From positions 128,001 through 192,000 of the forward strand of contig CAVYBH010000015.1 of the NCBI GenBank assembly GCA_963766715.1: a DNA stretch of 64,000 nucleotides, read 5' to 3'. Position 1 is the first letter of the stretch, and the number at the start of each line of letters is the position of its first letter. The stretch is from an uncultured delta proteobacterium (GTDB lineage Bacteria; Myxococcota; Myxococcia; Myxococcales; Anaeromyxobacteraceae). The notes beneath the pieces were generated by a model. The model was not told the DNA's origin. It made no database searches and saw nothing but the letters and a program-made list of their open reading frames with translations. A program made the position numbers and the translations under genes. Of the stretch, positions 31,111-42,546 are shown piece after piece.

Positions 31111-32238
31111 ATGGTCTTCGCGAGGACCCTCGTCGCGCTCGCCTACCTCCAGGCCGAGACCGCGGCGTATCTCTCGATGAACCGGCTGGGCGCGCTGCGC
31201 CGCTCGGTGCCGCTCCTCACCCCGGCGGACCGCGTGATCCCGCTGCGGCCGCGCTCCCTCTGGCTCTACCTGTCGTTCGTCCCCTTCTGCCTGGCGGCCA
31301 TCCACGACGTCCGGAGCATCCCGCGCATGGTCCGCATGATGGCCTGCCTGGTGCTCGCGACGCTCGTCTCCTACCGATCCTTCCTCCGCTTCCCTTCGTC
31401 CTATCCGCGGCCGGACGTGGAGCTGGACGTCGACGACCCGCGGCTCGCCGGGGCGTGGCGGTCGCTCCGCGCGATCGACCTGCCGGGCAACACCTTCCCC
31501 AGCGTTCACGTCGGCCACGCCTTCCTGCTCGCGCTCATGCTGGCGCCGGAGCTTCCGGAGGAGGAGGGCGAGGCGCGCATCCTCTGGGCGATCCTCATCT
31601 CGCTCTCCACGCTCACCACCAAGCAGCACTACCTCGTCGACATCGCGGGCGGGATTGTCGTGGCCGAGACCGTGGCCGGCCGGATCTTCGAGCCCTGGGA
31701 GGCCGGGCGGCTCGGCTGGCGCGGCGCATGGCGGGAGGTGCGCGCCCTCTGCGGGCGGCTCGACGCCATGGCCCGCGCCCCGCTCGCCTGCCGGCTGCGG
31801 GCCGGCGAGCGCCATCCCCGCCTGCGCTCCGTCCTCCGGGCCTTCTCGCGGCACGGCAGCCTGCTCGAGGCCTGCTCGCACTCGAACGCCGACGGCCATC
31901 TCCTCGAGGGCCGGGGCCCGCTCGTGGACGGCCTGCGCCTCCTGCGCGGCGTCACGGCCGTGCTGGCCGTCGCGTCCCCGGGGTGGATCCAGTTCGTGCG
32001 CCCGTTCCAGGAGGTCGAGCCCCACCTGACCCTGGAGGCGGTGCGCGCCTACCTCCAGGAGCTCGACCTCGACCTGGGCGTCGCCCTGCGGGCGCTGGTG
32101 GACTTCTCCGCCGGCGGCGCACCCGACGCCGCGTCACCCGAGCAGGCTCCAGGCCATCGCCCCGACGAGCGGGGCGACGAAGTAGACGAACCCGGCCACC
32201 CGGAGCCGGCGGCCGTTCCACTCGGAGGGATTCCGTAG
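31111..32238 (+). CDS. PAP2-superfamily membrane phosphatase/phosphotransferase with a C-terminal extension
   Basis: NTFPSVHV and STLTTKQHYLVD motifs; TM helices. Confidence 0.75.
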   Translation: MVFARTLVALAYLQAETAAYLSMNRLGALRRSVPLLTPADRVIPLRPRSLWLYLSFVPFCLAAIHDVRSIPRMVRMMACLVLATLVSYRSFLRFPSSYPRPDVELDVDDPRLAGAWRSLRAIDLPGNTFPSVHVGHAFLLALMLAPELPEEEGEARILWAILISLSTLTTKQHYLVDIAGGIVVAETVAGRIFEPWEAGRLGWRGAWREVRALCGRLDAMARAPLACRLRAGERHPRLRSVLRAFSRHGSLLEACSHSNADGHLLEGRGPLVDGLRLLRGVTAVLAVASPGWIQFVRPFQEVEPHLTLEAVRAYLQELDLDLGVALRALVDFSAGGAPDAASPEQAPGHRPDERGDEVDEPGHPEPAAVPLGGIP

Positions 32239-32976
32239 GAGCGAGGCGAAGCGCGAGGCGAGCACCAGCCCGGCCGGCGCCGCGATGGCCGCGAAGAGGG
32301 GATCCGGCCGCGCGATCTCCGACGCCGCCGCGGCGACCAGGCTGGCGACGAAGAAGCCCACGCCCCATCGCGCCCGCGTCCGCGGCGACAGCGGGTCTCG
32401 CAGCGGCGCCGGCATGCCGGCCTCCTCCTCGATGCCGTGCCCGAGATCGTGGGCCACCGCCCCGGTCCAGGCGAAGATCGCGACGAGGATCCCGCCGACC
32501 GTGGCCACGCCCAGGCCGATGGGGCCGAGGAGCACCAGCGCCGGGAAGACCAGGTTCACCATCGGTGGACCGAGCAACGGCGGGAGCCGGGGCCGCAGCG
32601 CGTGCCAGGCGAGCCCGGCGGCGACGCAGGCGGCCGCCCAGGCGCCCGAGCGGAACGAGAGCGCGAAGGCGCCGGCCAGCCCGAGCGCGCCCGCGGCGAG
32701 CGCGACGCGGCGGAGGAGCCGTGCCGGGAGGCGCCCCGAGGGCAGGACCCGCTCCGGCCGCCTCACCCGATCGCGAGCCACGTCGGCGAGATCGTCCCAG
32801 GCGCGCGCCGCCAGCAGCAGCAGCCAGCCGCACGCGACGAGCCAGGGGAGCCTTCCCCAGGCGCCCGGCGGGAGGCAGGCGCCGCAGAGCACGACGGCGA
32901 GCGGCACCGACACGTCGAGCGGGAATCGCTCCCGCACCCAGGCGCCGAGCGCCCTCGCGGCGCCGGGGTCAGCCAT
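32134..32976 (-). CDS. UbiA-like membrane prenyltransferase
   Basis: RAWDDLADVARDRVRRPERVLPSG (Asp-rich motif plus RP.PSG); multi-TM; coupled to the upstream gene. Confidence 0.7.
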   Translation of the reverse strand: MADPGAARALGAWVRERFPLDVSVPLAVVLCGACLPPGAWGRLPWLVACGWLLLLAARAWDDLADVARDRVRRPERVLPSGRLPARLLRRVALAAGALGLAGAFALSFRSGAWAAACVAAGLAWHALRPRLPPLLGPPMVNLVFPALVLLGPIGLGVATVGGILVAIFAWTGAVAHDLGHGIEEEAGMPAPLRDPLSPRTRARWGVGFFVASLVAAAASEIARPDPLFAAIAAPAGLVLASRFASLLRNPSEWNGRRLRVAGFVYFVAPLVGAMAWSLLG

Positions 32977-35497
32977 CGCCCGACTCGATGAGGACCGTCC
33001 CGGCGTCGCCGTCCACGAGGAGCGGGGCGCCGTCGGGGATCTTCCGGCAGGCGTCCCGGACCTGCACGAGTCCCGGGATGCCCGCCTCCCGCGCCACGAT
33101 GGCGCCGTGCGACAGGACGCCGCCGCGCTCGAGCACCAGCCCGCCGGCGAGCAGGATGAGCGGGGTCCAGCCGGGGTCCGCGCTCGGGGCCACCAGGATC
33201 TCCCCGTGCGCGAGCGTCTCGTGCGCCGGGTCCCGGAGCACGCGGGCGCGCCCCCTCGCCTTCCCGCGCGAGACCGGAACGCCCGCCAGCACGTGACCCG
33301 GGCGCTCCGGGCCCGGTTCCGGACCGCCCCCCTCGTCCGGGCCGAGGATCTCGCCCGCCCGCAGGACGAAGAGCGCCGGCGGCGGAGCGGCGGCCCAGGC
33401 CTCCCGGCGGCGGCGGCGCGCCTCCAGGAGCCCCGGCAGGCACTCGGGGTACGGGTAGGCGCCGTGGGCCAGCGCGCGCGCCTCCTCCCAGGTGAGGTCG
33501 AAGACCTCCTCCGGCGATCGGATCGCGCCGCTGCGCAGGAGGAGCTCGCCCAGCGTGAGGCAGGCGCCGCGAATCTCCCCGAAGAGCAGGCTCTGCTGGA
33601 GACGCCCCTCCTCCCGCTGCTGGACGGCCCGGAGGCTCCGCCGGTGGATCCAGCGCAGCACCCGCGCCCGGACGGGCCCGAGGTCCCGGCACAGCTCCTC
33701 CATCCGCCGATCGCGCCCGGACTCGGCCGCGTGCCGCGCCTCCGGGGAGCAGGGATCCGGAACGCCCGCGAACTGCCGGATGATCGCGTAGGCGAGGTCC
33801 GGCCGCTCGGCGAAGGTGGGGGAGACGAGCGAGCAGTCGTCGTAGCAACGCGCGCCGAAGCGGTCGAGGAAGGACTGGAACAGCTGGGCCTGGGCCGGAC
33901 CGAGGCCGGCGCGCCAGGCCTGGAAGTCCGGGGGACCGGAGGACGACCCCCCGGCGATCGCGGGCAGGGTCGACCGGGAGAGGGCCCAGAGGATCCGCGG
34001 CGGCTCGTCGCTCTTCACCGCCACGCCCTGGAGCAGCGTGGGGAGGACGTCCGCCCGCGGGCGTCCGCACCAGCGCTCGACCCGCTCGCCGAGCAGGCCG
34101 GGGAAGATCATGACGGCCAGGTCGGCGGCGCACGGCCCGCTCCAGGACTCGGCCACCACCTCGATCATCGACTCGAGCACCTCGTCCGCCTCCCGCGGGT
34201 CGGTCGCGGCGAGCAGCCTGCGGCGCCAGGCCGGCCGTTCCCGCTCCAGCCGGGCCTCCAGCGCCCGGAGCCTCGCGGAGATGGTCCCGAGCGCCCTCGC
34301 CAGGGACCCGAGGAAGCGGACGATCCCGACCGGGCCGTGGTTCCTGCGGCGCAGGGCGGGGGCCCGCGCGTCGGGAGGCGGCCGGACCGGCACCTCCTGG
34401 CCGATGTAGCCGTCGAGGAACGAGGTGAAGGTGGCGCTCCACGGGAAGTAGGAGAGAAGCCGGTACCAGGTGGTCAGGTCGTAGTGGATCCGGCCCCGGT
34501 GGATGCCGGTGACCGCGCCGAGCAGGTGCGGGACGGCCTCGAACTGCCGCCGCTCCCAGCCGAAGAGGCGCAGCACCGACCGGATGTACTCGGCGTAGAA
34601 GCGGTGCAGGACGGACCAGGCCAGCGGAGCGAGCGGCCTGGGGAAGTTCTCGGTGAGGTTGACGTTCGACCAGAGCACGTCCCCCGGGACGCCCACCGTG
34701 GTCACGGGCCGCGACTGGAGCAGGAGGAGCCGGTCGGCCGTGGCGCACCACTCGACGTCGACCGGGAGGCCGGTCGCGCGCTCCACCCGGGAGACGTGGT
34801 CCCGCAGCGCGAGCAGGTGGACGCGGAGCGGCGCGGGGACGTCTCCGGGGAAGACGTCGGCGTGGCGCGGGAGCGCGAGGCGGTGCGGCACCACGCGGCC
34901 CTGCACCAGGTCGCTTCCCAGCCCCTCGGTCCACTCCACGGTGAGCGCGTCGAAGCTGCGGGTGAGCGGGTCGAGCGAGAAGGCCACGCCCGACCACTCC
35001 GGGTGAACCTGCTCCTGGAGGATCACCGCCATGCGCTCGTCGCGATGGGGCAAGCGCTCGAGGTAGCTCCGCGCCGGGCCGTCGAGCAGGCTGGCCCAGC
35101 AGCGGGCGACCCGGTCGAGCACCTCGGCGCGAGGCACGCACAGGAAGCTCGCGAACTGGCCTGCCATCGAGAACCGCTCCCCGTCCTCGCAGGCAGCCGA
35201 CGAACGGACGGCGACCTCCCCTCCGGGGAGTCCGTCGAGCGCCTCCAGGATGGCCGCGCGCAGCGCCGGAGGCCACGCCCCCGCGATCAGGGCGCGGGCC
35301 GCGGCCGGCCCCCGGCTCTCGGGGCCGATGCCGTTGTGGACGCGGAACTCGTCGAGGGCGGCGGTGGTGATCGCGAGCGACCGGGGCACCGGAAGGCCGA
35401 GGGCCGCCAGGTGGGACAGGCCGACGCCCTTGCCCCCGACCAGTCCCGCGTCGGGAGACGGCTCGCATGCCAGGTCGAGGACCCTCGGTCGAGACAT
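32969..35497 (-). CDS. PEP synthase/dikinase-like phosphotransferase (RPH/PigC architecture)
   Basis: ATP-grasp GGKG and VAVRSSA..ED...SMAGQF; central WSNVNLTENFP; C-terminal phospho-His swivel GGVLSHGAIVAREAGIP. Confidence 0.88.
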   Translation of the reverse strand: MSRPRVLDLACEPSPDAGLVGGKGVGLSHLAALGLPVPRSLAITTAALDEFRVHNGIGPESRGPAAARALIAGAWPPALRAAILEALDGLPGGEVAVRSSAACEDGERFSMAGQFASFLCVPRAEVLDRVARCWASLLDGPARSYLERLPHRDERMAVILQEQVHPEWSGVAFSLDPLTRSFDALTVEWTEGLGSDLVQGRVVPHRLALPRHADVFPGDVPAPLRVHLLALRDHVSRVERATGLPVDVEWCATADRLLLLQSRPVTTVGVPGDVLWSNVNLTENFPRPLAPLAWSVLHRFYAEYIRSVLRLFGWERRQFEAVPHLLGAVTGIHRGRIHYDLTTWYRLLSYFPWSATFTSFLDGYIGQEVPVRPPPDARAPALRRRNHGPVGIVRFLGSLARALGTISARLRALEARLERERPAWRRRLLAATDPREADEVLESMIEVVAESWSGPCAADLAVMIFPGLLGERVERWCGRPRADVLPTLLQGVAVKSDEPPRILWALSRSTLPAIAGGSSSGPPDFQAWRAGLGPAQAQLFQSFLDRFGARCYDDCSLVSPTFAERPDLAYAIIRQFAGVPDPCSPEARHAAESGRDRRMEELCRDLGPVRARVLRWIHRRSLRAVQQREEGRLQQSLLFGEIRGACLTLGELLLRSGAIRSPEEVFDLTWEEARALAHGAYPYPECLPGLLEARRRRREAWAAAPPPALFVLRAGEILGPDEGGGPEPGPERPGHVLAGVPVSRGKARGRARVLRDPAHETLAHGEILVAPSADPGWTPLILLAGGLVLERGGVLSHGAIVAREAGIPGLVQVRDACRKIPDGAPLLVDGDAGTVLIESGDG

Positions 35498-35698
35498 GTG
35501 CGCCCCCCCGGGCTGCACGCACCGCGCTCCGTGCATCATTATACGGGAGGGCGCAGGCCCGGCCACCATTCACGGCGAGTGCGCTGAGACCATTGGGGTA
35601 GGTGCCTTCCCGATATCGCCGGCGCGGCCAGGAATTGCACCAGAGCGGGGCGGGTCGCCTATACTCGGTAGGACTTTTTTCACCTTCACCGAGGCTCC

Positions 35699-36916
35699 TT
35701 GATCAACGAACGGGAAATTGCCGCGCTGGTGGCGCGATTCGGCGTGGGCAGCCAGCTCACCGGCGGGATCCTCCTGGTCGACGACGAGCCCAACAACCTC
35801 CTCGTGCTCCGCGGGTTCCTGGACGACGAGGAGCGCTGGGTGATCCACGAGGCCGCCACCGGCGAGGAGGCGCTCGCCATCGCGGAGAAGACCCCGCTCG
35901 ACGTGGTGGTGAGCGACCACCGCATGCCCGGCATGAGCGGCGTGGACCTGCTCGAGAAGCTGCGGCGGCTCCGGCCGGACGTGGCGGGCATCGTGCTCAC
36001 CGGGTACGCCGACATGAACGCGCTGGAGGCGGCCATCAACCGGGCCAACGCCTTCCGCTTCCTGCGCAAGCCGTGGGAGCCGGCCGACATCCTGGAGGCC
36101 ATCGACCAGGCCTGCGCCCACGTGTCGCAGCGGCGCATCATCGAGCGGCTGGTGACCCTGCTCTCCGAGCGCGGGGAGATGCTGCGCTCCTCCTTCGACG
36201 AGATGAAGAAGCAGCAGCAGGCCCTGCTGCACCTCGAGCGGATCGGCACCATCGGCCGGCTGGCCTCGGGCGTGACCCATGACCTGGGGAACATGGTCGC
36301 CAGCCTGCGCGAGGCGGAGTACCAGCTCTCCCAGCACTCGGCCGCCCCGGAGCTGCGCGAGACCTTCACCCTGGGTCTCGCGCACGTCGAGAAGATCCTG
36401 CGCACCCTGAAGACGCTCCAGGACTTCGCCCACTCCGGGAAGCTGGAGATCTCCCGGGCGCCCACCGACCCGGCGGACGTGGTGCGAGACGCCGTCACCA
36501 TCTCCCGCATGGACCTCCACTTCCGGCTGCGCAAGCTGGTGGTGGACGTGGCCCCGTCGCTCCCGCCCCTGCAGGCCGACCGGCTCAAGCTCTCGCAGGC
36601 GCTCGTCAACCTGATCCAGAACGCCGTGCGGGCCACCGACAAGGACGCCGCCGTCCGGATCATCGCCAGCCCGCTGCCGGACGGCGGGCTCGAGCTGGCC
36701 GTGGAGGACGACGGCCCCGGCGTCGAGCCCGAGCACCGCCCGCGCCTCTTCCAGCCCTTCTCCGCCGGCAAGACCTCGGAGGGGCTGGGCATGGGGCTCT
36801 ACATGGCCCGCCTCATCGTCGAGTCGCACGGGGGGACCATCCGCCTCGTCGACCGGCCCCGCGGCGCCCGCTTCGAGATGCACATCCCTGCCGCACCGCA
36901 GCCCACCACCGCCTGA
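35699..36916 (+). CDS. Receiver plus histidine-kinase-domain protein (PhcR-like architecture)
   Basis: LLVDDE, SDHRMPGMSG and LRKPW; H-box VTHDLGN; DDGPG and GMGLY; TTG start. Confidence 0.85.
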   Translation: MINEREIAALVARFGVGSQLTGGILLVDDEPNNLLVLRGFLDDEERWVIHEAATGEEALAIAEKTPLDVVVSDHRMPGMSGVDLLEKLRRLRPDVAGIVLTGYADMNALEAAINRANAFRFLRKPWEPADILEAIDQACAHVSQRRIIERLVTLLSERGEMLRSSFDEMKKQQQALLHLERIGTIGRLASGVTHDLGNMVASLREAEYQLSQHSAAPELRETFTLGLAHVEKILRTLKTLQDFAHSGKLEISRAPTDPADVVRDAVTISRMDLHFRLRKLVVDVAPSLPPLQADRLKLSQALVNLIQNAVRATDKDAAVRIIASPLPDGGLELAVEDDGPGVEPEHRPRLFQPFSAGKTSEGLGMGLYMARLIVESHGGTIRLVDRPRGARFEMHIPAAPQPTTA

Positions 36917-36967
36917 CCCTTCTCAATCTTCCCCATCATCGCGCACACATCCGGAACCGTCTCCACC

Positions 36968-38533
36968 ATGGACAAGAAGACGAACATCAAGCTGGTCAAT
37001 CGGAGCGAGAGCCCCGGCAACGAGGCTCCCTCGCCCGCCCCGGCCCTCCACTCCCGCGTGGCCCGATACGAGGAGCTCGACGGCGCCGAGGGGCGCGCCG
37101 TCTACTTCCGACCGCAACGCTACACCGCCGCCGACCTGGCGCCCTTGAAGGGAACGGTCACCGTCACGGACGAGGGGACGCGCCGGGAGTGCGCGCTGCT
37201 CGACGTGAGCCAGAACGGCGTCGCGGTGGCCTGGCCCCACGGCTCCCCGCCCCGCAGGGGGAAGTGGGTCTCCGCGGTCCTGCGCTTCGACGGCCACGAG
37301 GCCTTCCGCGGCCAGGTCCGGGTCGGATCGGTGCGCGACTCGGGCGGCGGCTCCGTGCTCGGGCTCTCCTTCGACAACTTCCTCCTCGACGTGGACGACA
37401 TCCTCAGCCTGCGCTCCCTGCGCGCCTGGGCGGCGGAGGCCGGGAGCCCGCACGTCCAGGATCATCCCTGGGGCGTCCGCGACGGCGAGCGCTTCCAGGC
37501 CCGGGTGGCCGAGATGCGGCTGCTCATGGAGGACAGCCGGGAGCGGCTCGACGCCCTCGAGAAGCAGCTGCCCTGGCACAGCCTGCACGGGGCCCCGAAC
37601 CCGGTGCTGGGCTCGCTCGAGCGCTCGCTGCGCGCCGGCTTCGTGCCCGAGTTCCTCCGGCTCTCCGACGCCATCGACACCGAGATCCGCGCCCTGCCCG
37701 GCGGCCACCACAACGACCAGGCCAGGGAGTGGTGCCTGCGGCAGCTGCAGGACTTCATCATGATGTCGCCCGCCTGCCAGCGGGCGCGCGTGAAGCCCTT
37801 CGGCTACCCCGGCGACTACGAGGTGATGAACTTCATCTACGAGCGGTACTTCGAGGGATCGACCCTCTTCGCCCGCTCCGTCGGCCTGGCCTTCTCCGAG
37901 GCCGTCTGCTGCAAGGCGGTCCGGTTCCGCAAGGACCTGGTCAAGCGGCAGCTGAAGGCCCTGCTGGCGCGCCGCACCGGGTCGCGCGAGCCGGTGCGCG
38001 TGCTCTCCATCGCGGCCGGCCCGGCCCAGGAGCTCTTCGAGCTGCTGCAGGAGCTCGACGAGATGCCGGTCAACCTCGAGGTCGTGCTCTTCGAGCAGGA
38101 CAAGAACGCGCTGGCCCACGCGTTCCGGCGCCTCACCCCGGCCGTGGAGGCCCGCTTCCCCGGACGCGTCCGGCTGCTCTTCCTCCACGACTCGATCAAG
38201 CGGCTGCTGCGCGACGCCGCCCTCTTCGAGCCCTTCGGGAAGTTCGACCTCGTCTACTCCTGCGGCCTCTACGACTACCTGCAGCAGCGCACCGCGACCG
38301 TGCTCTCCCGGCACCTGGCCAGCACCACCGCACCCGGCGGGCAGCTGCTCGTCGCCAACATGGTCGATCACCCGGCCCGCGTGCTGCAGGAGATCCACCT
38401 CGACTGGCACCTCATCTACCGCACCCGGGAGGAGATCCTCGACATCGGCCGCTCGGCCGTGCCCGGCGCGCAGGTGCGGATCCTCGAGGAGGAGAGCGGC
38501 GTGAATCCCTTCTTCGAGCTCGTCCAGGGGTAG
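36968..38533 (+). CDS. PilZ-like domain fused to a class I SAM methyltransferase (PhcB-like)
   Basis: FRPQRY...LLDVSQNG (PilZ-like); KPFGYPGDYEVMNFIY; SAM motifs VLSIAAGPA and FDLVYSCGLYDYL. Confidence 0.78.
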   Translation: MDKKTNIKLVNRSESPGNEAPSPAPALHSRVARYEELDGAEGRAVYFRPQRYTAADLAPLKGTVTVTDEGTRRECALLDVSQNGVAVAWPHGSPPRRGKWVSAVLRFDGHEAFRGQVRVGSVRDSGGGSVLGLSFDNFLLDVDDILSLRSLRAWAAEAGSPHVQDHPWGVRDGERFQARVAEMRLLMEDSRERLDALEKQLPWHSLHGAPNPVLGSLERSLRAGFVPEFLRLSDAIDTEIRALPGGHHNDQAREWCLRQLQDFIMMSPACQRARVKPFGYPGDYEVMNFIYERYFEGSTLFARSVGLAFSEAVCCKAVRFRKDLVKRQLKALLARRTGSREPVRVLSIAAGPAQELFELLQELDEMPVNLEVVLFEQDKNALAHAFRRLTPAVEARFPGRVRLLFLHDSIKRLLRDAALFEPFGKFDLVYSCGLYDYLQQRTATVLSRHLASTTAPGGQLLVANMVDHPARVLQEIHLDWHLIYRTREEILDIGRSAVPGAQVRILEEESGVNPFFELVQG

Positions 38534-41186
38534 ATGAACGCCCCGGCGAACGTGATCGAGGAGCGCTGGGTCCGTTGGCGGCTCGAGCGAAACCGGCGCG
38601 GGCTGCGGGCCGGCCTGATCCTCGTCATCACCCTCTACCCGGCCTTCGGCCTGCTCGACTGGCTGCTCGCGCCGCCCGGGGCGCTGGCGTGGATCTGGGC
38701 CACCCGGGCGGGCATCGCCGCCTTCGCCGTCGCGATCCTGTGGCTGCTCCGCGGTCCGAGGCTCGACCCCTACGTCGAGTGGACCGGGGTGGTGGCCGGC
38801 TGGATGGCCGGCATCGGCATCGACGTGATGACCGTCTACATGGGCGGGCGTGGCCTCTCCCTACTACGCCGGCGTCATCCTGGTGGTGCTGGCCGCCGGC
38901 CTGCTCTTCGTGTGGCCGCCGCTGCTCGTCGTCGTCTACAACCTGGGCAGCATCCTCGCCTTCCTCTTCATCAACCTGCTCTACGGCGCGGTGGGGGAGA
39001 CCCACGAGGCCGCCTCCAACCTGACCTTCCTGTCGGCCACCGCGATCATCGCCGGCGTGGGGCAGGTGATGCAGTTCTGGTCGCAGCGAGAGCAGCTCGA
39101 GCAGCGGGTCCGGCTCGAGGCCACCACCGCGAACCTGGAAAGGGCCCACACCGAATTGCAGCGGCTCGACGAGTTCAAGTCGCGCTTCTTCGCCAACATG
39201 ACCCACGAGCTGCGCACGCCGCTCGCCATGGTGCTCACCCCGCTCGAGCTGATGATGCAGGGCGAGATGGGGGACTTCACCGAGGGCCAGCGCAGCTCGC
39301 TGCAGACCATGTACCGGAGCGCCCTCAAGCTCCTCAAGCTCATCAACGACCTGCTCGACCTGTCCCGCCTGGAGGAGAGCCGCCTTCGACTGGACGTGAA
39401 GGAGCACGACCTGGTCGGGCAGCTCCACGCGCTGGTGGAGCAGACCCGGGTGCTCGCCAACCGCAAGCACATCGTCCTCACCTTCGAGACCGAGCAGGAG
39501 CTGGCCCCGGTCTGGTGCGACCCGGAGCGGCTGGAGCGGGTCTTCGTGAACCTGCTCTCCAACGCCATCAAGTTCACGCCGGTGCGGGGACACGTCACGG
39601 TCACCCTCTCCGAGCAGTTCGACGACGTGGTGGTCGTCTTCCAGGACGACGGCCCCGGCTTCCCGCCCGAGAAGGCCGAGCAGATCTTCGAGCGCTTCTT
39701 CCAGGTGGACATGGCCGACCGGCGGCAGCACGGCGGCGCCGGGATCGGGCTGGCGCTGGCCCGCGAGCTGGTGATGCTCCACGGCGGGACCATCACCGCC
39801 CAGAGCGACGGACGGAACGGCGCCCGCTTCGTCGTGACCCTGCCCCGGGGGCGCGGCCACTTCCGCCCCGAGGCGCTCGCGGCGGGACGCGGGCAGGAGC
39901 CCCGGTCCGGCGACGCCGGCCTCGACTGGGCGGTCCAGGTGGCGGCGCGCCCCGAGTTCCGGCTGCTCGACATCGAGGAGGCCACCGAGCGGCGCGTCGT
40001 GGAGCGCGACGCCGACGAGGAGGCCCGCCCCTACACCGCCGTGGTCGTCGAGGACCACCCGCACATCGTCCAGCTCGTCCACATGTCCCTGCGGCGCCAG
40101 TTCAAGGTGCTGGCCGCCCCGGACGGCCTGAAGGGGCTCGAGCTGGTGATGCGGGAGCGCCCCAACCTGGTGGTGACCGACCTCATGATGCCGGGCATCG
40201 ACGGGCTCGAGCTGACGCGCCGGCTCCGGGAGGAGCCGAGCACGCGCCACATCCCCATCATCATGCTCACGGCGCGCGGCGAGCTCGACGACCGGGTGAA
40301 GGGGCTCGAGATCGGCGTCAGCGCCTACCTCACCAAGCCGTTCTCGCCGAAGGAGCTGCTCACGGCGGCCCGGGAGCTGGTGAAGGCCAAGGAGCAGACC
40401 GCCGACCTCGTGCTCACCCACAAGATGGAATCGCTGGAGATGGTGGCGGCCGGCCTGGCCCACGAGATCAACAACCCGCTCAACTACCTGAAGAACGCGC
40501 TCGGCCGGGTCCGGCTCGACGCGGAGAAGGTGCTGGCCCTCTGCTCGGTGGCGCGGAGCCGGCCGCTGGAGGAGGCGGAGGAGGTCCAGGTGGCGCGGCT
40601 CGACGCGCGGCTCCACGAGCTGCTCGGCGTGGCCGACTCGGGCGTGAAGCGGATCGGGAGCACGGTGGAGCTCATGAGCCGCTACGGGCGCGCCGGATAC
40701 AAGCGGGAGATGGTGCCCCACGACGCCTGGGACGCGGCCCGCACCGTGGTCGGCATCGTGCTCCCCGCCACCGGCCGCAAGGTGAAGGTGGACCTCGACC
40801 TGGACGGGGACGGCACGCTCGAGTGCGTCCCGGACGAGTTCAACCAGGTGCTCTCCAACCTGGTCCAGAACGCCATCGAGGCGGTGCCCGAGGAGACCGG
40901 ATGGGTCCGGGTCCGGGGGCGCGTCGAGGGCGACCACCTGACCGTGACGGTGAAGGACAACGGCCCGGGCATGCCGCAGGAGGTGGTGCAGCGGCTCTTC
41001 ACGCCCTTCTTCACCACCAAGGGCCCCGGGCAGGGGGTGGGGCTCGGCCTCACCATCACCCGGCGGGTGGTGCAGAGCCTGGGCGGGACGCTCCAGGTCT
41101 CGAGCCTCATCGGCCAGGGCACCGAGTTCGTGGCACGGTTGCCCCGGACCCAGCCCCGACGCGCGGCCCCGACGCTGGCCGGCTGA
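38534..41186 (+). CDS. Membrane hybrid sensor kinase (multi-TM, HisKA, HATPase, REC, HisKA, HATPase); frameshift near 38850
   Basis: THELRTPL, NAIKFT and GAGIGL; REC TDLMMPGIDG; second H-box AHEINNPL. Confidence 0.9.
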
Positions 41187-41200
41187 GCTATGCTCCCGGG

Positions 41201-42546
41201 ATGCGGATCCCGGCTCGCCCCGTCCTGCCCTTCCTGGTCGCCGCCCTCCTCGCCGCAGCGTGCTCGGGAAACTCGCCGCCGGCCCCGAACGTCGCCATCG
41301 CCGGCTGGTCCTGGGACCCCGCGGAGGCCGCGGACCGGCCGCTGCCGGTGCTCTGGTGGAACTCCTCGCTCCCCCAGCCGCTCGAGCTCCTCCCCGGGAG
41401 CGACTGTGCGTCGGGGTCCGCCCACGGGATCGTGATCCTGGAGGGCGTGACCTCCCTGGCTGGCTACCAGGCCTTCTGCAGCGGGGCCGCCGCCCCCCGG
41501 ATGCGCCCGGTCGTCTGGACACGCGACACGGCCGGCGCCATCGTCGTCGCGGCGCTCCCGCTGCCCGAACGCACCTCGCAAGCCACCGCGCTGGCGGTGG
41601 ACGTGCGGACGAACTCGGCCGGCACGGTGGACGTGTTCGTCGGAGGCGCGGCGGGCGTCGACTCTCCCTTCCCCATGGTCTGGAAGAACGGCCTGCCTTC
41701 GCTCGTCGACCCGTCGACGGTGCTCCCCCCGGTCACGATTCCGGGATCGTGACCTCGATCGGCGCCGGCGAGAACTTCGTCGCCGCAGGCGGAGTCGCCC
41801 ATGTGACCGGGAGTTCACCCCCCGCCTACAGTGCCGTCGTCTGGATCCTCGACCCCGACTTCACCACGGTGATCCCGATCCCCCTCGACCTGCCCGAAGG
41901 GGTGACGAGCGCCGACTTCGGGGCTTCGGTCCCGATCGTGGTCACGGCGGAGTCCCTGGTGTTCGCGGCCGCCTCGATCGCCACCGGCCCCGGCCTCGAC
42001 AAGCCGGTGGTGTGGATGGACAACGCGATGGTCGAGCCGCTGGGGCTCGACTTCACGGTCGGTCCGTACGGAGTCCCCACCGGATTCCGGGAGCTGGTCG
42101 GGACGCCGTACCTGAGCGGCTTCCTGCGCTCGTCGGGCGGGCTCCCGGCGCCGGCCGTCTGGGCCGCGACCTCCCAGCAGGCCCTCTCCACGGTCGACCC
42201 GTCCCTCGGCCTGGGCGCGGGCGAGGCGATCGCCCTCCTCTACGAGCACGCCTACGTGGCCGGCGAGACCTACCGGGGCGGGGCCACGCCCGGTGCGCCC
42301 ATGGTCTCGGTGGCGGCCTGGTGGGACAACGGCTCGCGCCACGACCTGCAGGGGATCGTCGCGGCCGGCGCCGGTCCGGTCCTCTCGCAGCCCCTCTTCG
42401 GCTGGTGGCGCCTGCCCGGAACGCCGTTGACCGATCCGCCCAACTGGCCCTACCCGGGTGGCTTCGCCGAGATCGACGCCGCGCCGGCCCGCGTGGCGGC
42501 AGCCGGGTCGGCGGTGGCGAAGGCGATCCTGGTCTTCCCGAAGTAG
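41201..42546 (+). CDS. Hypothetical lipoprotein with repeated P-x-x-W motifs; frameshift near 41735
   Basis: Lipobox LLAAAC; recurring PVLWWN, PVVWT, PMVWKNG, PVVWMDN and AAWWDNG. Confidence 0.7.

Follow-up and report, generated by a model that had tools for sequence, protein, structure and literature searches.

Within a 64,000-nucleotide stretch of DNA from an uncultured bacterium of the Anaeromyxobacteraceae (contig CAVYBH010000015.1, positions 128,001 to 192,000, hereafter the window), we analyzed a cluster of three genes, referred to here as g1, g2, and g3, which a preliminary description made from the letters of the sequence had likened to the phcB, phcS, and phcR quorum sensing genes of Ralstonia. 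The source assembly comprises 4.2 Mb with 72% guanine plus cytosine and is 85% complete. It was described as a myxobacterial-type genome, which agrees with its Myxococcota lineage and with the nearest named homologs of the cluster genes, which come from Anaeromyxobacteraceae. The three genes were confirmed to be co-oriented, with the ATG of g3 (38534) directly abutting the TAG stop codon of g2 (38531-38533). On comparative grounds, the cluster is a real, conserved, and uncharacterized variant of the Phc synthase-receptor pair, having a PilZ-bearing enzyme and a tandem-kinase output. Its features are as follows.

35699-36916, plus strand: g1, a soluble receiver-controlled histidine kinase (REC-DHp-CA; 405 aa; Asp73 and His194) of PhcR/LvrB-like architecture, from Pfam REC and HATPase_c matches.
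36968-38533, plus strand: g2, a PilZ and PhcB-family class I S-adenosylmethionine (SAM) methyltransferase of 521 aa, the predicted signal synthase.
37094-37378, plus strand: PilZ domain of g2 (PF07238), residues 43-137, with R43, F47-R48-P49-x-R51, and D79-x-S81-x-x-G84.
37460-38530, plus strand: methyltransferase part of g2 (helical and Rossmann), whose family motif KPxGYxGD starts at 37793.
38534-41186, plus strand: g3, a membrane hybrid kinase (sensor-DHp-CA-REC-DHp-CA), from Pfam, motif positions, and an intact relative.
38534-39170, plus strand: PhcS-type six-helix membrane sensor domain of g3, weakly MASE8-like, the predicted receptor, from a PhcS-only profile and a structure model.
38846-38849, plus strand: one-base insertion splitting g3 (an assembly error), from the sequencing runs and intact homologs.
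39177-39848, plus strand: first kinase core of g3, H-box THELRTP with its His at 39204, from HisKA and HATPase_c matches.
40041-40370, plus strand: internal receiver of g3 (Response_reg, E 5.8e-28).
40422-41165, plus strand: second kinase core of g3, H-box AHEINNP, of the same subtype as the PhcS and PhcR cores by profile ranks.

The proposal that g3 combines a membrane domain with two transmitter modules was upheld by Pfam and motif positions, which place a DHp-CA core, a receiver, and a second DHp-CA core in succession. In the window, the frame of g3 changes at ~38846-38849 due to one extra base. This base is missing from all four sequencing runs compared, among them contigs that show just 1-2 further differences across 431-709 nt, and the orthologs are in frame across the site. 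A relative ~95% identical to g3 (P0468) is a single 883-aa protein, with His224, Asp549, and His643 by its own numbering, while frame changes compared to relatives affect 4 of 14 test genes of the assembly, g3 included. Because all four runs lack the base, the close relative is intact, and frame changes recur across the test genes, the break in g3 is an assembly error, and on the same three observations we rejected g3 as a true pseudogene. The run and test-gene results also count against a broader alternative, in which the g3 of this strain is genuinely a pseudogene, or the genes stay linked merely by inheritance and share no function. This alternative could draw upon the frameshifted g3 of the window and the few loci that have lost one partner, but the linkage described below holds from the Burkholderiales to the Myxococcota at <30% identity, and we regard it as very improbable.

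We compared g2, which had been described as a PhcB-like SAM methyltransferase and bears KPFGYPGDYEVMNFIY starting at residue 276, with the enzymes of named Phc loci. These loci were reached via a Paraburkholderia plasmid match, its homologs, and a genome scan (80 loci kept of 580 confirmed); the Ralstonia syzygii locus (L103) has the order phcB-phcS-phcR-phcQ. From the end of its N-terminal barrel to its C-terminus, g2 aligns with R. syzygii PhcB at 28% identity over 426 aa (E 5e-34). Nine residues (K276, P277, G282, D283, R321, G351, D436, Y437, and W480) are invariant in 64 aligned sequences including PhcB, across which the KPxGYxGD motif, the SAM-site glycine, the DY, and the W are invariant or nearly so. 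A total of 53 positions are ≥85% conserved in both 80 Burkholderiales sequences and 32 sequences of the window clade, i.e. the enzymes scoring over 520 bits in the genome survey described below. The JGI name "3-hydroxypalmitic acid methyl ester biosynthesis" is also attached to 30 of 120 g2 homologs among the matches listed. The PhcB alignment, the common invariant motifs, and the JGI names together support assignment of g2 to the PhcB family of methyltransferases, and this much was already known to the extent that the automated JGI annotation labels the enzyme as PhcB-type. No NCBIfam model matches g2, and none specific for PhcB or for the PhcS membrane domain turned up there; a comparison of the g2 sequence with solved structures gave no match under E 0.3. 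The structure model of g2 (predicted local distance difference test, pLDDT, 90.9) has its best fold match in an uncharacterized Bordetella protein (3OCJ; Z 20.4, root-mean-square deviation 3.0, 251 aligned), followed mostly by small-molecule or uncharacterized methyltransferases, with CheR not among the matches listed.

The position of g2 within this family was less close to PhcB than had been supposed. In a quick enzyme tree of 76 chosen rows (LG+G4), the window clade forms one group with a support of 99, and the approximately unbiased (AU) test rejected a strict union of the window and PhcB clades (p 4.6e-117), with L164 and L157 lying beside each clade, whereas a union including L164 and L157 was not rejected (p 0.15 and 0.42). 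As judged from these comparisons, g2 is a distant PhcB-family member; its family membership stands, and in the free tree it falls in its own clade and does not nest in PhcB. Two sensor-less enzymes of the wider family have suggestive neighbors: one is followed by a fatty acid hydroxylase-P450 fusion, and the other, which is placed as sister of the window clade, is preceded by genes for biotin carboxylase and a biotin carrier (L156:5041-7071 and L157:4716-6733). We view both as isolated hints of acyl substrates.

A feature of g2 absent from the preliminary description is its PilZ domain, which matches PF07238 at residues 58-137 above the Pfam cut-off (E 6.9e-7). The ligand motifs of PilZ domains are R-x-x-x-R and D/N-x-S-x-x-G. 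The second motif of g2 is canonical and present in 120 of 121 clade sequences; among these 121, R43 is kept in 119, while R48, R51, D/N79, S81, and G84 are each kept in 120. The first motif counts against ligand binding, as its first arginine is Phe47 in g2, giving F47-R48-P49-x-R51 plus R43. The arginines are nearly invariant, but their spacing is unusual. This pattern of conservation points to a kept binding site, and we would put the chance that it binds cyclic di-GMP (c-di-GMP) slightly short of even. Burkholderiales PhcB aligns over the same barrel but without the motif residues. The N-terminal region of Ralstonia PhcB (L103:6001-6270), which has no Pfam PilZ match, aligns with the PilZ barrel of g2, such that PhcB itself probably carries a degenerate PilZ fold. 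Elsewhere, a stand-alone PilZ gene converges on short enzymes that have no fused domain (L049:8487-8825, L194:7867-8211, and L203:7782-8312), which is a second hint of a PilZ-enzyme link.

The PilZ domain also bears upon an alternative role for g2 as a CheR-like modifier or PilZ adaptor that methylates or binds g3 or g1 in a c-di-GMP-dependent manner. Binding of a PilZ adaptor to a methyltransferase or a hybrid kinase has precedents in MapZ and HapZ, the g2 stop abuts the g3 start, and R. syzygii PhcB has weak CheR matches (E 0.0047). However, g2 aligns with PhcB, which is described as a signal synthase, over the 426 residues noted above, its fold neighbors are mostly small-molecule enzymes, and, as shown below, it is the membrane domain that the enzyme remains linked to when one cytoplasmic output replaces another. 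We consider this role for g2 quite improbable.

For the membrane domain of g3, which had been proposed to resemble that of PhcS, we built a profile solely from the membrane domains of 78 Burkholderiales PhcS proteins, leaving out any Myxococcota sequence. When run against the genome (32,032 frames), this PhcS-only profile places g3 at the top (E 0.01 with the half domain after the break; next best 0.22), and it matches 14 intact g3 orthologs at E 4e-9 to 3e-4, with intermediate loci reaching 5e-20. The reference sensor of L103 is 100% identical to a protein named PhcS, and D42, R58, Y110, and G113 (L031 numbering) are invariant in 95 sensor members. The profile ranking and the invariant residues show homology with the PhcS membrane domain, and the four residues are candidate ligand contacts of the PhcS sensor domain. 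The sensor of the L031 ortholog is modeled as six long helices (pLDDT 96.8). Its fold neighbors are ImcA (top) and the membrane domains of adenylyl cyclases, with TM-scores up to 0.69, although all of these Foldseek matches lie at E 0.018 or worse; the sensor profile likewise matches the diguanylate cyclase ImcA (E 6.9e-5). MASE8 (PF20968) gave a weak match in 3 of 95 sensor members and appears in the precomputed listing on many named PhcS and clade proteins. The accessible text of PMC4821796 describes the six-helix quorum receptors CqsS and LqsS, with their lipophilic ligands, as exchangeable with cyclase anchors and leaves PhcS unmentioned, while that of a bioRxiv preprint (10.1101/2021.11.05.467447) merely names MASE8.

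We next considered how consistently the three genes occur together. The same gene order was found in 14 of 14 fetched close ortholog loci, and because of this the linkage of g1, g2, and g3 is far beyond chance. In an enzyme profile search of 401 genomes of the phylum (E 1e-20), the enzyme family was present in 178, a tally that takes in one match in the unpublished genome G202, upon which nothing else rests. At E 0.001, the whole enzyme family comprises 4,186 clusters. The window clade occurs in 44 of the 401, all from two families only (25/64 and 18/23 genomes) plus G000. From this clade, we compared 38 loci, made up of G007 and 37 of the 44 other strong matches; these and the further fetched loci below were hand-picked from ranked lists rather than randomly chosen. 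A sensor kinase lies directly behind the enzyme in 34 of these 38, a few of which are cut by contig ends, and a REC-kinase lies upstream in 33, two of them only as fragments. Hence, the conserved methyltransferase-kinase linkage expected from the preliminary description is found both among the close orthologs and in the window clade at large. The sensor domain also accompanies more distant long enzymes in 40 of 45 fetched loci (the exceptions being L156, L157, L164, L191, and L175, which is near a contig end) and is present in 80 of 81 loci from a Burkholderiales PhcB query, compared to 0 of 21 fetched short-enzyme Myxococcota loci. Viewed from the sensor, 37 of 44 strong matches in 66 other family genomes adjoin an enzyme, a share inflated by a broad sensor profile built from enzyme-linked members. 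The main clades of the enzyme tree recur in the sensor tree (patristic r 0.87, 55 pairs), as would be expected from linkage alone. More telling than this is that the membrane domain stays with the enzyme as one output is exchanged for another: in the distant long-enzyme loci, the sensor is mostly joined to a PP2C phosphatase and otherwise to a tandem kinase, a kinase-REC-PP2C module, or an adenylate cyclase. Four genomes (G360, G115, G333, and G399) each have two separate enzyme-sensor pairs.

Several variants of the arrangement were encountered among these loci. A second Myxococcota subfamily (L021, L161-L163, L165-L174, L176-L182, and L184-L190) consists of the enzyme, a PhcS-type sensor-PP2C (SpoIIE) fusion, a conserved HATPase-like protein of 190 aa (19 loci), and a protein of 123 aa that has no Pfam match (23 loci), which looks like a partner-switching output. 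At L045:9314-10747, a PhcS-type sensor directly behind a PhcB-family enzyme is fused to a class III adenylate/guanylate cyclase. A separate clade (L046-L048 and L155) has the order enzyme, tandem-kinase sensor, and REC-kinase, which is the phcB-phcS-phcR order. On a Pseudanabaena plasmid (L051:6953-9572), a short enzyme converges on a kinase having the same sensor and a receiver, beside a Tn3 transposase. Seven strong sensor homologs (L212, L213, and L215-L219; six PP2C fusions and one tandem kinase) have no enzyme in the fetched stretch and are possible orphan, eavesdropping receptors.

With regard to the kinase parts, the description of g1 as a REC-HisKA-HATPase protein held for the receiver (REC 24-135), the HATPase (294-399), and the H-box His194, but Pfam gave no HisKA match. 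Asp73, His194, and the N-box are kept in 28 of 28 g1 orthologs, and the G1/G2 boxes in 27. The likeness of g1 to PhcR is limited to its REC-kinase architecture, as PhcR profiles rank its receiver 5th of 48 and its kinase core 43rd of 62 in its own genome. In the same genome, the first core of g3 ranks 58th of 79 with a PhcS-core profile, while the second ranks 9th of 79 with that profile and 1st of 62 with a PhcR-core profile. The architecture of g3 is not that of PhcS: it has an additional receiver and second kinase core, amounting to 883 aa versus a membrane-DHp-CA kinase of ~442 aa. PhcQ is absent from the cluster, and a PhcQ-tail profile finds nothing in the 85%-complete genome. The best NCBIfam match of g3 (the part after the break) is the LvrA model, at 301 bits versus a cut-off of 1200. 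Membership in LvrAB was rejected on account of this score, a sensor that is membrane rather than PAS, and the absence of LvrB from the g1 PDB matches at E 1e-15. LvrA is a sensor-DHp-CA-REC-DHp-CA protein that phosphorylates both its own receiver and LvrB, a REC-DHp-CA protein (available portions of PMC5863495), and the LvrB kinase is switched on by phosphorylation of its receiver (available portions of PMC13269768). Given how far the g3 score falls short of the cut-off, and given the PAS sensor of LvrA, we treat the resemblance of g1 and g3 to LvrAB as an analogy.

From these comparisons, the cluster probably constitutes a make-and-sense circuit, in which a self-made, methylated lipophilic signal would be perceived via a branched phosphorelay. 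In the proposed mechanism, g2 would transfer a methyl group from SAM to a small carboxylic or hydroxy-acyl molecule, as suggested by its fold and family and, for the substrate, by PhcB. Some acyl compound is a slightly better than even guess for this substrate, and a 3-hydroxy fatty acid in particular is a doubtful one. Once methylated, the product may partition into membranes, where the six-helix domain of g3 would bind it; the homology of this domain to the PhcS sensor makes it the presumptive binding site. Ligand binding would switch the first core of g3, directing phosphate to its own receiver and to that of g1; the residues needed are intact, and the flow is modeled on LvrA. The two receiver-controlled kinase cores could in turn phosphorylate regulators encoded elsewhere, as no target regulator is encoded in the cluster. 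Lastly, the conserved PilZ domain may let c-di-GMP gate g2. The template for this scheme is the Phc model, as presented in the accessible parts of PMC6989110, PMC11960443, and PMC11298618; according to the second of these, strains are divided by signal type in the phylogeny of PhcB as well as in that of PhcS.

A number of observations weigh against this interpretation. The signal circuit is drawn from sequence, linkage, and models. The window clade is not sister to Burkholderiales PhcB and has only 22-28% identity to it, and a neighbor search found no fatty acid gene recurring beside the window-clade loci. Due to the low identity, the separate clade, and the lack of such a neighbor, we doubt a fatty acid methyl ester in particular, and a 3-hydroxy fatty acid methyl ester is accordingly a less certain, indeed unlikely, identity for the signal than a methylated lipophilic compound in general. 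The catalytic motif is common to sensor-less members and does not specify the substrate. The nearest tree neighbors of PhcB are themselves sensor-less enzymes (L164, L192, L195, and L199), so members of the family also function where no receptor is linked to them. Four loci of the window clade (L150, L151, L228, and L229) have no sensor, 7 strong and 8 weak sensor matches in the family genomes have no enzyme, and the pairwise sensor match is weak (E 3e-4). In those four loci, the PilZ-methyltransferases sit among receivers and PAS kinases, and a DUF4118-PAS hybrid kinase follows in L228 and L229.

Such partner-less genes are also part of the basis of a different explanation, in which the pair senses lipids of the cell or of its environment and does not serve cell-cell signaling: the enzyme would methylate a membrane lipid or incoming compound, thereby making or removing a ligand, and the receptor would report the cell's own state. 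The sensor family is indeed wider than Phc, matching ImcA and occurring enzyme-less in 15 family loci, sensor-less enzymes are found in many Myxococcota, and no export or lipid gene is conserved nearby. Conversely, only one pair of these families has been characterized, and the signal that it produces and detects is secreted (accessible parts of PMC6989110 and PMC11960443); private signals are also the better fit for genomes that have several pairs, every pair having an enzyme of its own. We therefore view the lipid sensor as improbable, if less so than the CheR-like role, and favor the make-and-sense circuit.

Compared with the Phc system of Ralstonia and Cupriavidus (phcB-phcS-phcR-phcQ, with methyl 3-hydroxymyristate or -palmitate as the signal), the cluster similarly has a methyltransferase gene directly followed by that of a six-helix sensor kinase, both homologous to their Phc counterparts, along with a REC-kinase partner. 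It differs in that the window-clade enzyme retains PilZ motif residues lost from PhcB, that its sensor includes one more kinase core plus a receiver, and that the REC-kinase is upstream and not a specific PhcR ortholog, with the PhcQ tail not found in the 85%-complete genome. Thus, the cluster fails strict phcBSRQ membership in its sensor architecture and PhcQ, but on the present evidence appears to work like Phc. With LvrA/LvrB of Leptospira it has in common a tandem-kinase hybrid and a REC-kinase partner, although LvrA, unlike g3 with its membrane sensor, is a cytoplasmic protein that lacks membrane spans and senses through a PAS domain, and the word methyltransferase is absent from the accessible text of PMC5863495. 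The CqsA/CqsS and LqsA/LqsS systems and the MASE8-like anchors of ImcA and adenylyl cyclases also employ a six-helix membrane module with short loops, the likeness to CqsS being one of design. The CqsA and LqsA synthases are pyridoxal phosphate enzymes rather than methyltransferases.

In the papers found, Phc signaling is described for Ralstonia and close Burkholderiales. Within the open literature, excluding supplements and most subscription journals, we found no paper on a Phc-type system in Anaeromyxobacter or other myxobacteria, and no PhcB-PilZ fusion was found by title or abstract among the papers listed; a literature search on the substrate yielded mainly work on polymers. As a tentative and rather doubtful generalization, the PhcB-family enzyme and PhcS-type sensor could be a widespread modular autoinducer pair in Myxococcota, whose synthase is here gated directly by c-di-GMP via a PilZ domain lost from Ralstonia PhcB. 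If so, a large part of the Myxococcota would have a self-made, lipid-like signal that nobody has looked for, and a quorum-signal synthase directly under c-di-GMP would be an unusual link between two signaling layers. The circuit is testable because the cultured species Anaeromyxobacter paludicola (P0030 and P0414) and A. oryzae (P0062 and P0406) carry both the enzyme and the sensor proteins.

Regarding the surroundings of the cluster, a promoter scan found no sigma-70 site at it, and on the minus strand two terminator-like sites that overlap each other were returned, a result within the range seen for shuffled sequence. No RNA run was listed among the sequencing runs with matching DNA, which has no bearing on expression. 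Downstream of g3, a 428-aa gene without a Pfam match (window 41260-42546) recurs behind g3 in 10 of 11 same-genus loci, the 11th of which ends first, and in 0 of 3 more distant loci. Upstream of g1 (window 31111-35569) are a PAP2 gene on the plus strand and, on the minus strand, a gene for a phosphoenolpyruvate (PEP)-utilizing enzyme of the PigC/RedH/Rph type followed by a UbiA prenyltransferase gene. These three were rejected as a signal-building cassette, since they have no match in 20 loci and belong to no recurring neighbor family. Each occurs once in the genome and none is found at the orthologous loci, and together they look like an inserted small biosynthetic or lipid-modifying cassette.

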